From the IMG/VR virus record IMGVR_UViG_2778260979_000026: a stretch of 4,231 nucleotides of DNA, one strand, 5' to 3'. The position numbers and the translations under genes were made by a program. Position 1 is the first letter of the stretch; every line of letters begins with the position of its first letter. Origin of the DNA: a virus (taxonomy: Duplodnaviria; Heunggongvirae; Uroviricota; Caudoviricetes). Of this stretch, positions 1-4,231 are shown in pieces. The notes beneath the pieces are model-generated. The model searched no databases. It was not told the DNA's origin and worked only from the letters and a program-made list of their open reading frames with translations.

Positions 1-282
1 ACTGCGCATACGGGCCACCAGCAGAGGCGGCATTGCCTTTTCGATCGCCGGTAACAGAGCCTGCATTTTTTCAACAGCATCAGGGGTGTCTTTATCCAGC
101 CAACGGAAAATTTTCTGGGTATTACGAGCCAGGGCTTCCGGATGGCTGTCGTCGTACAGTTCCGGGAACGTCATCCCCAGTTCGAAATAAGTCCGGGCTA
201 TTTCAGCTGCAGGAACTTTCTCACCATCAGGATATGCCCAGGCATTCATCGCCATGCGGATGTGCTCATGTTTGATTTTCAT
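1..282 (-). CDS. ydaT: YdaT-like prophage regulatory protein, N-terminal part only; the gene runs off the left edge of the window
   Basis: Hand translation of the minus strand from ATG at 282..280 gives MKIKHEHIRMAMNAWAYPDGEKVPAAEIARTYFELGMTFPELYDDSHPEALARNTQKIFRWLDKDTPDAVEKMQALLPAIEKAMPPLLVARMRS, open to position 1. It is absent from the ORF track because there is no stop in the window. The N-terminus matches my recollection of Rac prophage YdaT (memory, not a search). A GAGG lies about 10 nt upstream of the ATG. The start overlaps the 3' end of the ydaS-like gene by 17 bp. The + strand ORF 33..275 is its antisense shadow. Confidence 0.7.
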   Translation of the reverse strand, partial: MKIKHEHIRMAMNAWAYPDGEKVPAAEIARTYFELGMTFPELYDDSHPEALARNTQKIFRWLDKDTPDAVEKMQALLPAIEKAMPPLLVARMRS

Positions 283-589
283 GAATCATTTGCCTCTTGA
301 TGCTTCGGGTATGATCGTTTTCGTCATTTGGTTGCTTCATCGACATATTCTGCGAATAACATGACGAGCGTCGTAAGTATGTCCAATCAACATCAGGACG
401 AAGTTCTTCACACAGGACACCACCTTTTGTTGCTCGTTCAATCGCAGGACATCTCTCAGCAGGCAACTGACGTACACCTTTGATCCATTGATTTACGCTT
501 GGAGGAGATACACCTAAAAGCCTAGCCATTGCTGATTGCCCACCGACAACAGCACAAGCTCGTTTGAATGAATAGTTATCTTTTTTCAT
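266..589 (-). CDS. ydaS: Cro-like helix-turn-helix DNA-binding protein (YdaS family)
   Basis: The ORF track protein contains MKKDNYSFKRACAVVGGQSAMARLLGVSPPSVNQWIKGVRQLPAERCPAIERATKGGVLCEELRPDVDW, which matches Rac YdaS closely from memory. I chose the ATG at 589..587, which has a GGAG about 7 nt upstream on the minus strand, over the track start at 610. It is divergent from racR across an operator region. Confidence 0.85.
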   Translation of the reverse strand: MKKDNYSFKRACAVVGGQSAMARLLGVSPPSVNQWIKGVRQLPAERCPAIERATKGGVLCEELRPDVDWTYLRRSSCYSQNMSMKQPNDENDHTRSIKRQMIHENQT

Positions 590-618
590 CGAATGAACTC
601 CAAAAAACACACAATAAT

Positions 619-713: not shown

Positions 714-1190
714 ATGCTTAGTGGTAAAGACTTAGGCCGAGCGATAGAGCAGGCCATTAACAAAAAAATTGCATCAGGAGCCGTCAAATCAAAGGCGGAA
801 ATCGCACGTCATTTCAAAGTCCAACCACCATCAATCCATGACTGGATTAAGAAAGGTTCGATAAGTAAAGACAAACTTCCAGAACTATGGCGTTTCTTTT
901 CTGATGTGGTTGGTCCAGAGCATTGGGGGCTTAACGAATACCCCATACCAACCCCATCCACTTCAGATACAAAAAGTGAACTTTTAGACATAAACAGCCT
1001 TTATCAAGCCGCCTCTGATGAAAAAAGAGCAATTGTGGCTTTCCTCTTATCTGGAAATGCTACGGAGCCTAGTTGGGTTGATCATGACGTTCGTGCCTAC
1101 ATTGCCGCAATGGAAATGAAGGTAGCTAACTATCTGAAAAATCAAGAATCAAAACGGAAAAGCCAGAACATCACCAAGACAGGAACTTAA
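714..1190 (+). CDS. racR: Prophage repressor RacR (CI functional analogue)
   Basis: The 158-aa product MLSGKDLGRAIEQAINKKIASGAVKSKAEIARHFKVQPPSIHDWIKKGSISKDKLPELWRFFSDVVGPEHWGLNEYPIPTPSTSDTKSELLDINSLYQAAS... is near-identical to E. coli Rac RacR as I recall it, at the same length. It is divergent from the cro-like gene and flanked on both sides by operator palindromes. Confidence 0.9.
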   Translation: MLSGKDLGRAIEQAINKKIASGAVKSKAEIARHFKVQPPSIHDWIKKGSISKDKLPELWRFFSDVVGPEHWGLNEYPIPTPSTSDTKSELLDINSLYQAASDEKRAIVAFLLSGNATEPSWVDHDVRAYIAAMEMKVANYLKNQESKRKSQNITKTGT

Positions 1191-1283: not shown

Positions 1284-1327
1284 ATTAGGCGTAGCCTATT
1301 GACAAGCAATTAGGCATTTCCTATAGT
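1284..1327 (+). promoter_or_regulatory. OL-type operators overlapping a near-consensus sigma70 promoter (pL analogue) reading rightward
   Basis: -35 TTGACA at 1299..1304, a 17-bp spacer, then -10 TATAGT at 1322..1327. Operator-like palindromes ATTAGGCGTAGCCTATT (1284..1300) and TAGGCATTTCCTA (1312..1324, one mismatch) overlap the -35 and the spacer/-10. A weaker half-site TATTAGGT lies at 1265..1271. Confidence 0.65.
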
Positions 1328-1427: not shown

Positions 1428-1658
1428 ATGACGGCAGGGTTCAACTTTAACTATGCAGCAGGTTTTTGTTCCGCTACCCCGGCGTTAAGGGGATATGAGG
1501 TCAGCATGGATACTCTTGATCTTGGCAACAACGAATCTCTGGTGTGCGGCGTGTTTCCCAACCAGGACGGCACGTTCACCGCGATGACGTATACCAAAAG
1601 CAAAACGTTTAAAACCGAATCTGGCGCGCGTCGCTGGTTAGCAAGAAACTCTGACTAA
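1428..1658 (+). CDS. Small hypothetical prophage protein, first ORF downstream of the pL-like promoter
   Basis: A 76-aa ORF with GAGG about 10 nt upstream of the ATG at 1428. An in-frame ATG at 1506 has a better-spaced GAGGT 5 nt upstream and would give a 50-aa product. Its position corresponds to the ydaG/ydaF slot of Rac. I do not recognise the sequence with confidence. Confidence 0.5.
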   Translation: MTAGFNFNYAAGFCSATPALRGYEVSMDTLDLGNNESLVCGVFPNQDGTFTAMTYTKSKTFKTESGARRWLARNSD

Positions 1659-1740
1659 TGAAATCTGGTAATTAAGGAATCCTCCACGGGGGGAGAGTGG
1701 TGCACACGCGCCGGACACAAGCAAGCATCCGGCATGCTCT

Positions 1741-1760
1741 TTAACAATCTGGATATCCAT
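1741..1760. repeat. TTAACAA-TCT-GGATATCC element 13 bp downstream of the stop of the antisense gene
   Basis: Contains the palindrome GGATATCC (1751..1758). ATCTGGATATCC (1746..1757, extendable to 13 bp) is the exact reverse complement of GGATATCCAGAT at 2313..2324. TTAACAA is also shared with 2324..2330. Confidence 0.5.
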
Positions 1761-1772
1761 AACAGTAAAAAT

Positions 1773-2264
1773 CTACAGATTGCCGTTCAGTTTTCTGGCC
1801 AACTCTTCAATAGATGGAGGTGATACGTAATCCGGATTTTTATTCATAAGAAACTGATTTTCACAGTACAGGCACCTGCTTTTATGAAAAAATTCATATT
1901 CTCTAACCGGGAATGGCTGAAGTATCGATACTATCTTTTGTCCAAAACATTTTGGACAAAGATGCATGATTATGCTGCCGCCGTTCACGGTTACCTCCTT
2001 CGAGTACACAAAAGTTCCCGACTCAAGTTGGCTAAGGATATAACCTTCCGTCTGAGCCTCAAAGTTTTCAAATTCTGCAATTTTAGCTTTGAGAGAAGCA
2101 TTTATTTCTTGATAAGTGCCCACCAGCTCAACGAGAGACACGCATTCGCGCTGAATAGATGCAAGCTTTGAGTTCAGTTCACCAATAGCCGCATTTACTT
2201 CAGCTTGAGTTTTTGCCTCGTTCATTAGTTTTGCAATCTGGGCGGTTTCACGAATAGCCGTCAT
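1773..2264 (-). CDS. Hypothetical protein with a coiled-coil-like N-terminus and a C-terminal CxxC-x22-CxxC zinc ribbon; candidate moron or exclusion gene
   Basis: Minus strand ORF ending at TAG 1775..1773. Start chosen at ATG 2264..2262, giving MTAIRETAQIAKLMNEAKTQAEVNAAIGELNSKLASIQRECVSLVELVGTYQEINASLKAKIAEFENFEAQTEGYILSQLESGTFVYSKEVTVNGGSIIMHLCPKCFGQKIVSILQPFPVREYEFFHKSRCLYCENQFLMNKNPDYVSPPSIEELARKLNGNL. The track's longer version starts at a TTG at 2441 and translates the upstream repeats into Pro/Arg-rich sequence, which looks non-coding. There is no obvious Shine-Dalgarno, so the exact start is uncertain (the next in-frame ATG is at 2225). The gene is oriented against its neighbours and is more AT-rich than they are. 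Confidence 0.6.
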   Translation of the reverse strand: MTAIRETAQIAKLMNEAKTQAEVNAAIGELNSKLASIQRECVSLVELVGTYQEINASLKAKIAEFENFEAQTEGYILSQLESGTFVYSKEVTVNGGSIIMHLCPKCFGQKIVSILQPFPVREYEFFHKSRCLYCENQFLMNKNPDYVSPPSIEELARKLNGNL

Positions 2265-2302
2265 TGCTGCCGTTAATTCAGCGATCACATTCAATACTCT
2301 TA

Positions 2303-2348
2303 TTGTTGTTGGGGATATCCAGATTAACAAGATCCTTGTTGTTGGGGA
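2303..2348. repeat. Direct repeat TTGTTGTTGGGGA x2 (2303..2315 and 2336..2348) flanking GGATATCC-AGA-TTAACAA
   Basis: An exact 13-bp direct repeat with 33-bp periodicity. The palindrome GGATATCC (2313..2320) and TTAACAA (2324..2330) sit between and partly within the copies. The module lies between the start of the antisense gene and the remnant exonuclease gene. Confidence 0.6.
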
Positions 2349-2372
2349 ATAACGGGGACCACCTCGCCTGAC

Positions 2373-2810
2373 GTGGTAAAAAGCAGGCACACAACACGAA
2401 AGCACACGGCGAGGGACACCATTAAATGGTGGCTTAAGCAATCACGCGAAGCGCAATCTGCCATTATGACCGATGAAATCCCGTTAGATGATGCACTGTT
2501 ACAATTGCGGGAATTTATCGACGAAAACTCCGGTGAATTTTTTGTTCAGGTCTGGGGAAATGGAGCCAACTTCGACAACACGATTTTGCGCCGTTCATAC
2601 GAACGGCAGGGGATCCCCTGCCCGTGGCGTTACTACAACGATCGCGATGTACGCACAATCGTTGAGCTGGGGAAAGCCATAGACTTCGATGCCAGAACGG
2701 CTATTCCATTCGAAGGTGAGCGCCATAATGCACTTGATGACGCCCGTTACCAGGCAAAATACGTTTCAGTTATCTGGCAAAAACTGATCCCGAATCAGGC
2801 TGATTTTTAA
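2373..2810 (+). CDS. DEDDh-type 3'-5' exonuclease family protein (Rv2179c-like), apparently 5'-truncated
   Basis: The product carries an Exo II-like motif (WGNGANFDNTILRRSYER) and an Exo III-like Hx4D motif (HNALDDARYQAKY) but no N-terminal hydrophobic-strand/DxE Exo I motif. The first ~13 residues (MVKSRHTTRKHTA, from a GTG start) do not resemble the family. An in-frame ATG is at 2466. Neither start has a convincing Shine-Dalgarno. Confidence 0.65.
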   Translation: MVKSRHTTRKHTARDTIKWWLKQSREAQSAIMTDEIPLDDALLQLREFIDENSGEFFVQVWGNGANFDNTILRRSYERQGIPCPWRYYNDRDVRTIVELGKAIDFDARTAIPFEGERHNALDDARYQAKYVSVIWQKLIPNQADF

Positions 2811-2821
2811 TGTTCAACCCC

Positions 2822-2854
2822 GGTCGTTGCCCACCAGCTATAGTGGCGGCGACC
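2822..2854 (+). other. GC-rich stem-loop in the exonuclease-xis intergenic region
   Basis: GGTCGTTGCC(C)AC pairs with GTGGCGGCGACC with G-U wobbles and one bulge, about 12 bp, around the loop CAGCTATA. No U-tract follows on either strand, so it is not a canonical intrinsic terminator. Confidence 0.3.
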
Positions 2855-2874
2855 ATGATTAGCGAACGACGCTC

Positions 2875-3123
2875 ATGGCAAGACTTATTCTGCTCACTGA
2901 GTGGGCAAAAGAGGAATTCAGTGAACCGGTCCCAACTCCGAGTACGTTAAGTAAATACGCTAAAGCCGGAATGATATTTCCTCTCCCCAAAAAAGTTGGA
3001 AGACGCTGGCGAGTGGATCCGCAAGCTCGCTTTGTCGGAATGGTAAACAAGCCGGAGGTGATCGCCACAGATCACCCTGCTTTGAAGAGGATACTGGAAG
3101 ATGGCGCGCCCGCGAAAATATAA
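2875..3123 (+). CDS. xis: Excisionase (Xis, DNA-binding)
   Basis: An 82-aa basic protein, MARLILLTEWAKEEF...GMIFPLPKKVGRRWRVDPQARFVG, typical of excisionases. It lies immediately upstream of int and overlaps it by 23 bp. Confidence 0.8.
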   Translation: MARLILLTEWAKEEFSEPVPTPSTLSKYAKAGMIFPLPKKVGRRWRVDPQARFVGMVNKPEVIATDHPALKRILEDGAPAKI

Positions 3124-4231
3124 AACCGATGTTCCGGGATTATCTCCGTATTTTGACAAAAGAAATAACAAAGTTTACTGGCGTTACAGGCATCCCATAA
3201 CAGGCAAAAATCACGGTCTCGGCAGTATTGACCAGAAACTGGCAGAAACTATTGCAGCAGAAGCGAACAGCCGTCTTGCCCGGCAGCAAATGGAACAAAT
3301 GCTCAGTCTGCAGGAGAAAATTATTAGTGATACCGGCGGTTCATCAACCGTTACCATTTTTCTGAATAATTACAGAAAAATTCAACAGGAAAGATATGAA
3401 AACGGCGAGATCAAACTCAACACGCTGAAACAGAAAGCGGCCCCTCTCAGGGTATTTGATGAACGTTTTGGCACCAGACCGTTAGATGCCATAACCGTAA
3501 AAGATGTGGTATCAGTACTGGAAGAGTACAAGGCCAGAGGACATAACAGAATGGGACAAATTTTCAGGAAAGTACTGATCGATGTTTTCCGGGAAGCTCA
3601 GCAAACGGGCGATGTCCCGCCAGGCTTTAACCCTGCAGAATCGGCAAAAAAACCGCAGGTGCGGATATCAAGACAGCGACTGACTTTTGATGAGTGGATG
3701 ATGATTTATAACGCAGCGGAAAAGGATGGTTACTTTTTACAGCGCGGTATGCTGCTGGCACTGATGACAGGCCAGCGCCTTTCAGATATTTGCAAAATGC
3801 AATTTTCGGATATCCGGGATGGTTATCTTCATGTCGAACAGCAAAAAACAGGAACCCGGATTGCCATCCCTCTGGCTCTGCGTTGCGATAAATTAAATCT
3901 CACCCTGGATGATGTGGTGTCATCCTGCCGCGATTGCGTTCTTAGTCCGTGGCTATTGCACCACCATCACGCGAAAGGGACAGCTAAGCGCGGCGGGATG
4001 GTTAAGCCAGCAACATTAACCGTTGCATTTAAAAAAGCCCGGGATTCTGTGGATTACAACTGGCGTGCTAATGGCACCCCTCCCTCTTTCCATGAGCAGA
4101 GATCTTTATCAGAGCGATTGTTCAGAGAGCAGGGGGTTGATACCAAAATTTTGCTAGGCCATTCGAATCAAAAAATGACCGATATTTACAACGACGCACG
4201 CGGTAAGGAATGGAAAAAACTGGTCATTTGA
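3101..4231 (+). CDS. int: Tyrosine site-specific integrase (lambda Int family)
   Basis: A 376-aa product with an arm-binding-type N-terminus (MARPRKYKTDVPGLSPYF...). Catalytic signature elements are visible: R in GQRLSDI, H-x-x-R in HEQRSLSERL, and the H...Y pair in LLGHSNQKMTDIYNDARGKEW. The stop TGA is the last codon of the window. Confidence 0.9.
   Translation: MARPRKYKTDVPGLSPYFDKRNNKVYWRYRHPITGKNHGLGSIDQKLAETIAAEANSRLARQQMEQMLSLQEKIISDTGGSSTVTIFLNNYRKIQQERYENGEIKLNTLKQKAAPLRVFDERFGTRPLDAITVKDVVSVLEEYKARGHNRMGQIFRKVLIDVFREAQQTGDVPPGFNPAESAKKPQVRISRQRLTFDEWMMIYNAAEKDGYFLQRGMLLALMTGQRLSDICKMQFSDIRDGYLHVEQQKTGTRIAIPLALRCDKLNLTLDDVVSSCRDCVLSPWLLHHHHAKGTAKRGGMVKPATLTVAFKKARDSVDYNWRANGTPPSFHEQRSLSERLFREQGVDTKILLGHSNQKMTDIYNDARGKEWKKLVI

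Follow-up and report, generated by a model that had tools for sequence, protein, structure and literature searches.

The 4,231-nt stretch analysed here (IMG/VR virus record IMGVR_UViG_2778260979_000026, Caudoviricetes; hereafter the window) spans the immunity region and the early-left region of a prophage of the lambdoid type, and raises the question of why a gene that reads against the early-left operon is bracketed by mirrored sequences. This cargo gene (1773-2288, minus strand) encodes a predicted Rip1-family protein of 171 amino acids. A first-pass annotation, made from the sequence alone, had taken the mirrored sequences either for cassette boundaries, left as scars of insertion or recombination, or for paired binding sites of a regulator. 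Comparison across phages and genomes shows that the two sequences, called arms below, frame a hypervariable cargo slot within the early-left operon (pL, dicBF-type) of lambdoid prophages, and that this frame is conserved. The arms covary, and complementarity, not sequence, is their conserved property.

The arms, boxA and the exchangeable slot

Mirrored sequences are indeed present at both ends of the antisense gene. Positions 1741-1758 read TTAACAA-TCT-GGATATCC, and positions 2313-2330 read GGATATCC-AGA-TTAACAA. The 12-mer first reported pairs as described, although its left copy, ATCTGGATATCC, lies at 1747-1758 and not at 1746-1757, and the exact inverted repeat is 13 nt long, formed by AATCTGGATATCC (1746-1758) and GGATATCCAGATT (2313-2325). 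Ungapped extension brings it to 26 nt with 81% complementarity, which gives a left arm at 1746-1771 (core 1746-1758) and a right arm at 2300-2325. The left arm lies 2-27 nt past the stop codon of the minus-strand gene (1773-1775), and the right arm 12-37 nt 5' of its GTG start (2288). On the minus strand the right arm reads AATCTGGATATCCCCAACAAC and stands directly 5' of the cargo ribosome-binding site.

The 13-nt repeat is in itself weak evidence, as the first-pass annotation had already judged for a match of 12-13 bp, because some exact inverted repeat of this length occurs in 37% of simulated 4,231-nt windows (first-order Markov, window composition). The placement of both arms, no more than 40 nt from the stop and 60 nt from the start, has an expectation of about 2e-5, a post hoc calculation. 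The repeat is real and not a chance match, and it is the comparative data that carry the weight. Of the TTAACAA heptamers, which had been read as part of the mirrored element, the left copy is the 3' part of a canonical boxA, which had been overlooked, and the right copy is not conserved. In direct orientation on the right, TTAACAA is confined to the Rac-type backbone (the window and L008), and since other loci mostly have TTAACCG it does not belong to the conserved element. The gene had also been called compositionally atypical, which reduces to a mild AT-richness (GC 0.38-0.44 versus 0.47-0.53 in its flanks).

The boxA together with its first spacer base, TGCTCTTTAACAAT (1735-1748, plus strand), is of the rrn type. 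It is identical at 14/14 positions to the rrn boxA-spacer oligonucleotide ugcucuuuaacaauuua, which has been used in NusA/NusB binding studies (PMC2724277 Table 1), it matches the boxA consensus GCUCUUUAACAA, and it is conserved in all slots. The lambda nut boxA CGCUCUUA (cgcucuua in the same table) is weaker than this rrn-consensus sequence. In the window, boxA lies 408 nt 3' of the consensus pL promoter, and predicted consensus promoters are aimed at it in both backbones considered below (1299-1327, plus strand, in the window; 3863-3890, plus strand, in PhiR29_1). A hairpin read from the sequence, GCCGGA-N12-TCCGGC (1710-1733, plus strand), directly precedes boxA. Its stem is retained in L070 with a different loop, and in CPS-53-type backbones the cargo gene has its minus-strand intrinsic terminator at this position.

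A different, CPS-53/e14-like backbone, represented by PhiR29_1, PhiR49_1 and strain PS10-3, contains the block 1736-2396 with 93.5% identity, placed between a LexA-type cI gene and yfdP. Homology between these two unrelated backbones begins exactly at boxA (1736), which makes boxA part of the frame and not of the backbone, and reaches 10 nt past the left arm and 70 nt past the right arm. In the same place of the same backbone type, GF31 carries a minus-strand gene of the ECs1072 family with a small convergent open reading frame (ORF), and CFT073 a minus-strand gene for an unrelated protein of 170 amino acids. The flanks common to all these slots are ...GCTCTTTAACAATCTGG on the left and CCAGATTAACCGAATCCTTGTTGTTGGGGAATAAC... 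on the right.

Two pattern scans of IMG/VR and one of GTDB yielded about 220 loci, denoted here by L numbers. Both flanks are present in 123 of them, which gave 80 unique cassettes of 454-863 bp falling into 10 sequence clusters. At least ten unrelated cargo clusters of 0.45-0.86 kb are found in the frame. Within Enterobacterales the frame itself occurs in 15 genera or more, among them Escherichia, Shigella, Klebsiella, Enterobacter, Citrobacter, Kluyvera, Kosakonia, Buttiauxella, Atlantibacter, Scandinavium, Rahnella, Serratia, Sodalis, and Izhakiella. Among complete E. coli genomes, the CPS-53-type slot is present in at least 876 of 5426 and the version of the window in about 338. Nearly all loci have AATCTGGATATCC right after boxA and, at the right end in reverse complement, AATCTGGATATCCCCAACAAC followed directly by the ribosome-binding site and start codon of the cargo, this right arm hardly changing from cargo to cargo or from genus to genus. 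On the pL strand, the frame thus reads, from 5' to 3', hairpin, rrn-type boxA, left arm, cargo, right arm, and a conserved block of about 70 nt. The cargo is almost always oriented opposite to the pL strand, variability starts at the inner edge of the arms, and one pair of arms is found with many unrelated cargos. The idea of cassette boundaries therefore stands insofar as the arms edge an exchangeable cargo region, with conservation, among unrelated cargos, stopping inside the arms on both sides. A search for the element around other cargo genes, which had been suggested as a check, found many.

Complementarity of the arms and its possible role

Three classes of arms can be distinguished. The first is AATCTGGATATCC(CCAACAAC), the second, typical of CFT073-type cassettes, carries AATCTGGATGACT on either side, past which complementarity continues in part, and the third (L129, L132, L137 and L157) pairs GTAACCCTC with GAGGGTTAC. 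The second and third classes have neither the palindrome of the first nor any of its motifs, and are still complementary. Mirrored point changes are also found, namely G7A in L151, G6T in L153, and A19G in the Klebsiella phage L205. Covariation was assessed for a helix of 24 pairs in an alignment of 47 distinct arm pairs, against 500 shuffles of partners, none of which reached the observed value in any of three measures. Standard pairs occupy 78.6% of the cells (73.3±0.6 when shuffled), the covariation score is 0.196 (0.121 shuffled), and 16 pairs show changes on both sides (10.9 expected). Sliding the register lowers pairing to 32-48%, and cognate arms form duplexes with a mean of -26.4 kcal/mol, compared with -22.3 for arms of different cassettes. 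Complementary flanks backed by covariation, one mark of a leader-trailer helix, are therefore present.

On which strand the arms would pair is less sharply defined. The minimum free energy (MFE) fold of the whole plus-strand cassette contains a helix of 23 pairs, including G.U pairs, with a 3-nt bulge (z = -6.9), while that of the minus strand contains a shorter one of 14+4 pairs (z = -4.0). The plus-strand duplex is the stabler in 41 of 57 cassettes and the minus-strand duplex in 15, and the share of paired cells is higher for the plus strand (78.6%) than for the minus strand (73.4%). These data modestly favour the boxA-bearing pL transcript. The fusion of the left arm to boxA is a stronger argument for that transcript than the strand asymmetry. 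An excess of G.U (98) over A.C (39) combinations on the plus strand was set aside as a basis for assigning the strand; it is a weak pointer only, since it largely comes from variation in the C/A-rich left arm opposite a fixed right arm, and most of the changes are transversions.

The reading to which these data point, held tentatively and at slightly less than an even chance, is that within the boxA-bearing pL transcript the two arms pair into a leader-trailer-like helix, which loops out the antisense cassette, insulates the operon, and helps to silence the cargo. The left arm would be the 5' strand of this long-range helix and the right arm its 3' strand. In the lysogen, repression would keep pL off, and expression of the defence gene would come from the minus strand. 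Upon induction, pL transcription would cross the cassette in antisense, producing an untranslated stretch that would be a target for Rho. Recruitment of the NusB/NusE complex by boxA just ahead of the cassette would keep the RNA polymerase processive and, with the boxA RNA remaining attached to the polymerase, the left arm would be held near the RNA exit channel, ready to pair with the right arm on its emergence. The resulting helix (13 perfect pairs, about 23 with G.U in the window) would resemble that of the 16S rRNA leader and trailer. It would loop out the antisense cassette RNA, which RNase III might excise, and the downstream operon would in this way be insulated from any cargo plugged into the slot. 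Antisense read-through would at the same time silence a defence gene able to attack the packaging proteins of its own prophage; an off-switch coupled to induction is plausible because a protein that senses packaging rings could be set off by those of its own prophage.

Precedents for these steps come from known systems. In rrn operons, Nus factors tether boxA to the RNA polymerase and have been proposed to promote the leader-trailer helix, which is cut by RNase III (PMC4807359; PMC10250234). In CRISPR arrays, boxA shields long untranslated transcripts from Rho (PMC7665894), a precedent that applies here because the pL transcript across the antisense gene is likewise an untranslated stretch. 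The slot resembles the rrn leader (boxB-boxA-boxC with the 16S leader-trailer helix) in having a hairpin, an rrn-type boxA, and then at once the 5' strand of a long-range helix. In both, the 3' strand follows only after hundreds of nucleotides, the RNA in between is untranslated on that strand, and covariation supports the helix. They differ in that the slot encloses a hypervariable antisense protein-coding cassette of 0.45-0.86 kb and rrn an ultraconserved rRNA, in the length of the helix (25-40 bp in rrn, and in the slot 13 well-kept bp, up to about 23 with G.U), and in the slot having no boxC. By analogy with rrn, RNase III cleavage and Nus dependence of the slot would be predicted. A wider reading, that temperate phages of Enterobacterales have copied the rRNA solution, in which boxA-tethered Nus factors close a helix, into a universal socket for defence genes, is doubtful, if still worth stating. 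As part of that same doubtful reading, any inserted gene would be on in the lysogen and, on induction, would be read in antisense, looped out, possibly excised by RNase III, and silenced, which would guard the phage against its own abortive-infection cargo, such as a Rip1 that senses the phage's terminase, and leave the downstream operon intact.

Several observations weigh against a helix in the pL transcript. Pairs 1-13 are kept in 85-100% of the cells and positions 14-24 in about 50-70%, and the rrn helix requires more than 17 bp (PMC10250234), while 13 pairs are generally kept here. Right-arm variants in L099, L209, L206, and L094 have no compensation on the left. The shuffling statistics overstate the significance, because the sequences are related. 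AATCTGG also follows boxA in many phages with ordinary boxB-like hairpins and no repeat, which gives the outer part of the left arm an identity of its own as boxA spacer; its outermost part thus appears to be conserved for that reason. The strand preference is modest and is confounded by the near-invariant right arm, perhaps fixed as the 5' untranslated region (UTR) of the cargo, and the left-arm deviations are mostly transversions (220, against 140 transitions). Finally, three steps of the model, read-through from pL, formation of the helix, and its cleavage by RNase III, are inferred. Departures from the core are also seen in L003 (PS10-3), where the left arm has AATCAGG for AATCTGG and the right arm is unchanged, and in the GF31-type L179, which has the same change; since both break the 13-nt core without compensation, single mismatches are evidently tolerated.

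Among the alternatives, pairing of the arms in the mRNA of the cargo survives best, and it is nevertheless unlikely. Here the 5' UTR on the minus strand, AAUCUGGAUAUCCCCAACAAC, would pair with the 3' UTR in a panhandle that stabilises the mRNA or tunes its translation. The covariation counts equally for this strand, the helix also appears in the minus-strand MFE fold, and the right arm adjoins the ribosome-binding site and start codon of every cargo. In CPS-53-type backbones, moreover, the left arm is closely followed by the cargo terminator, so that the mRNA would contain both arms. The weaker pairing on the minus strand (73.4% against 78.6%, and the stabler duplex in 15 of 57 cassettes) speaks against it, as does the result of a search for sigma-70-like cargo promoters, which found none in a consensus scan of 1600-2500, nor was one seen in the conserved right flank 5' of the right arm (2289-2412, minus strand). 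A panhandle also fails to account for the fusion of the left arm to boxA and for their joint movement between backbones. If the promoter lay beyond 2412, the copy of the cargo gene in the window may be silent.

The arms could also act on DNA, as terminal inverted repeats or att-like half-sites at which cassettes with matched ends are exchanged. The sharp onset of variability at the inner edge of the arms, the use of one arm pair by many unrelated cargos, and a correlation between arm class and cargo type would fit such recombination sites, and when joined the arms make a perfect 18-nt palindrome, AATCTGGATATCCAGATT, as read from the sequence. The single-copy empty site that such exchange would leave behind, and which had been suggested as a check, was not found. 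Three IMG/VR pattern scans, for the joined palindrome and for boxA separated by a gap of 0-30 nt from the right arm or from the right-flank block, gave 0 matches, and an artificial joined query compared by BLAST with E. coli genomes returned only two-piece, filled matches among those sampled. Inverted sites should permit inversion, yet an all-against-all blastn of the 80 unique cassettes gave no inverted match of 40 nt or more. The cargos were met solely in this slot and in one orientation, and the cassette ORFs are small defence-type proteins, with no transposase or recombinase encoded. The homology extending 10 nt past the left and 70 nt past the right arm suits ordinary homologous exchange in the flanks. 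The scars of insertion or recombination envisaged in the first-pass annotation are thus not borne out, and dedicated recombination sites are improbable.

Further candidates were rejected. A 3-bp AAC direct repeat outside the arms, considered as a target-site duplication, is not conserved, the bases outside the right arm being AAC, AGC, ACC, or ATC. A transposable element or miniature inverted-repeat transposable element with terminal inverted repeats does not agree with the lack of a conserved target-site duplication and of empty sites, or with the restriction to one locus and one orientation. For a split nut site with a surviving unsplit ancestor, no such sequence was found in an IMG/VR scan.

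A repeat without present function, be it a chance match or the relic of an old inverted duplication hitch-hiking with conserved flanks, is very improbable. Exact 13-nt inverted repeats are common in the simulations, and the left arm decays past position 13; recurrence in at least 15 genera and with at least ten cargo types, the mirrored changes, the entire alternative arm classes, and the shuffling and sliding controls stand against it. Least credible, to the point of being almost negligible, is an operator pair by which a regulator would loop the segment of about 0.55 kb to control the antisense gene: the arms do stand at both gene ends, and the arm in the window contains the palindrome TGGATATCCA with a third partial copy, TTGTTGTTGGGGA, 33 bp away, but identical arms lie behind unrelated repressors (RacR-type and LexA/cI-type), no cassette encodes a regulator, and a sequence-specific protein site is unlikely because the three divergent arm classes, the second and third sharing no motif with the first, each keep their complementarity.

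Further experiments on the pL-transcript helix have material at hand. For PhiR29_1 and PhiR49_1, both from E. coli ECOR13, complete phage genomes have been deposited, and PhiR29_2 is recorded on E. coli C. Compensatory-mutation experiments with these phages look feasible.

Parallel use of boxA with flanking complementarity may exist elsewhere, to judge from the sequences of two loci, L082 and L016, which are unrelated phages with repeated promoter-boxA units. In L082 (minus orientation), an 18-nt exact repeat follows boxA and has its partner at +672, past one or two sense-strand ORFs, with the right copy overlapping the -10 region of the next promoter. In L016, the repeat is 19-20 nt long and its partner lies at +564, again past one or two sense-strand ORFs.

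Cargo proteins and known systems

The cargo gene of the window (PHROG 1244; PGAP WP_000559928.1) is annotated in O157:H7 genomes as a hypothetical protein of 171 amino acids. Its annotated start is the GTG at 2288, with a Shine-Dalgarno-like AAGAG 8 nt upstream, and an in-frame ATG at 2263 is an alternative. Searches of the protein against Pfam, PADLOC, and NCBIfam gave no assignment. A profile of 21 homologues compared with the PDB matched 9oox, Rip1 (ring interacting pore 1), over residues 6-152 (E 2.1e-23), and a single-sequence search gave the same entry (E 3.6e-7). With the AlphaFold2 model of the protein (AF2; confidence score pLDDT 89.6), Foldseek returned 9oox as the sole significant match (E 5.9e-7, probability 1.0, TM 0.70 on the target). 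The entry contains the Rip1 of HK446 with the T6 small terminase. The cargo is thus, by sequence and modelled fold, a homologue of Rip1, and its putative role in pore formation and abortive infection is drawn from published work on homologues.

Rip1 itself is an anti-phage protein of prophages that assembles a membrane pore around small-terminase or portal rings and causes premature lysis (2026 review, PMC13434031). Like the HK446 protein, the prophage-borne cargo protein combines long N-terminal helices with a C-terminal beta domain holding four invariant cysteines. The identity between them is about 27-28%. The window gene is located in the early-left operon, whereas in a Pseudomonas prophage the Rip1 gene lies between the terminase genes. 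A homologue with 29% identity is hkaP of HK620, also antisense in a pL operon and annotated as a putative superinfection exclusion protein.

Other cargos of the slot include the ECs1072 family, small proteins with two transmembrane segments, and unidentified ones, and with the Rip1-like protein among them the slot can be regarded as a defence hotspot. The cargos of L061, L065, and L070 (148-166 amino acids) form another recurrent family of small proteins, which start with M(N/D)RDD and have two predicted hydrophobic helices; that of L070 sits in the Rac-type backbone of the window, 5' of a DicF sequence. In several loci, L006 (1873-2079, of the GF31 type), L015, L021, L080, and L223, a small plus-strand ORF of 66-76 amino acids with a strong ribosome-binding site lies just inside the left arm. 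It is convergent with the minus-strand defence gene and would be expressed from pL on induction, and is a candidate cognate inhibitor or self-immunity factor.

None of the components, be it boxA, Rip1, an antisense gene in a pL operon, or a prophage defence hotspot, is new in itself. A frame of boxA and complementary arms around a defence hotspot was not found described in the literature searched, the coverage of which is incomplete. Lambdoid nutL regions and the antisense genes of pL operons, such as lambda sieB and HK620 hkaP, share with the window a boxA shortly 3' of pL and a defence or exclusion-type gene reading against the operon. Unlike nutL, the boxA of the window has no boxB hairpin 3' of it and no N gene is evident, and hkaP, unlike the window gene, is not bracketed by such a repeat. 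The defence hotspots of P2 and P4 prophages and satellites (Rousset et al. 2022, PMC9122126), and morons, have in common with the slot a fixed backbone position, conserved flanks, and interchangeable anti-phage genes. The slot differs from them in being placed within an operon, in antisense, and in being framed by a cis element (boxA, complementary arms, and the 70-nt block).

A further parallel is offered by prophages of S. aureus, where antisense non-contiguous operons (tha/ith) balance immunity and autoimmunity (PMC11087260). As in the slot, the defence gene overlaps an opposing transcription unit, which makes the lysogenic and lytic expression states mutually exclusive. In tha/ith, however, the inhibitor protein Ith does most of the work and there is no boxA or flanking helix, while in the slot silencing would be exerted through pL read-through.

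Prophage defence hotspots are usually recognised only through conserved flanking genes, while the slot offers a compact and searchable cis-frame of boxA, complementary arms, and the 70-nt block, which could serve in the search for new anti-phage genes throughout Enterobacterales. If a boxA-coupled RNA helix does form, this would be the first protein-gene context in which an rrn-type boxA stands beside the upstream arm of a long-range stem. It would also explain how the operon is kept running through an inserted antisense gene. The way in which a prophage tolerates an abortive-infection gene able to fire on its own packaging proteins would then have a testable answer.

The right-flank block and the prophage context

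The conserved block that follows the right arm (2326-2396, plus strand, about 70 nt) travels with the frame and is shared by different cargos, backbones, and genera, with equivalents at 2512-2592 in L006 and 2500-2580 in L007. It includes a second copy of TTGTTGTTGGGGA at 2336-2348 and a predicted hairpin, UCCUUGUUGUU-GGGG-AAUAACGGGGA, which is present in the MFE fold, as well as CCACC..GCCUGA.GUGG..AAAAGCAGGCA. The GCCUG/CAGGC and CCAC/GUGG pairings could together form a pseudoknot. No Rfam family matches the frame or the right-flank block. Just 3' of the frame in CPS-53-type prophages, sub-threshold matches to the Rfam sRNA family STnc100 (38 bits, with a gathering score of 47) are found at 2596-2818 in L006 and 2584-2805 in L007, overlapping an annotation as 'frameshifted hypothetical protein'.

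To the left of the slot, the immunity region of the window comprises a cro/ydaS-like gene (266-610, minus strand) and racR (714-1190, plus strand). The consensus pR promoter (646-617, minus strand) is overlapped by OR operators, and a pL-type early-left promoter, TTGACA-17-TATAGT (1299-1327, plus strand), has 11/12 consensus matches. Two OL operators TAGGCnnnGCCTA (1286-1298 and 1311-1323) overlap pL and match the OR set at 621-684; five copies of this operator are spread over the OR (621-684) and OL (1286-1323) sets. A 21-nt inverted repeat of 95% identity connects 640-660 with 1285-1305.

After pL, the order of genes is a ydfA-like DUF1391 gene, the antisense gene, an exonuclease 3' remnant, xis, and int. 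The first of these (1506-1658, plus strand; Pfam PF07151, E 6.6e-30; PGAP, O157:H7) opens the dicBF-type early-left operon. The remnant (2409-2810, plus strand; PGAP pseudogene note, Pfam PF16473) consists of the last ~130 codons of a gene for an exonuclease of about 813 amino acids, full-length in relatives. A deletion with its junction at about 2412/2413, placed by homology breakpoints, has removed a DicF-like sequence, dicB, ydfD, and most of the exonuclease gene. That it is the window which carries the deletion follows from the prophage of O91 RM7190 (L008), a relative that retains the full operon with the DicF-like sequence, dicB, ydfD, and the complete exonuclease gene. K-12 Qin was dropped as a reference, since the record examined has a deletion there.

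Among complete E. coli genomes, coverage of the window stays at or below 67%. A potC-adjacent prophage of O157:H7 is identical to it over positions 1-2819, and PPompW/Stx2a phages, which have a different xis/int module, over positions 2413-4231. Because the two parts match different prophages, the source prophage is a mosaic, with a junction near 2819, just past the exonuclease stop.

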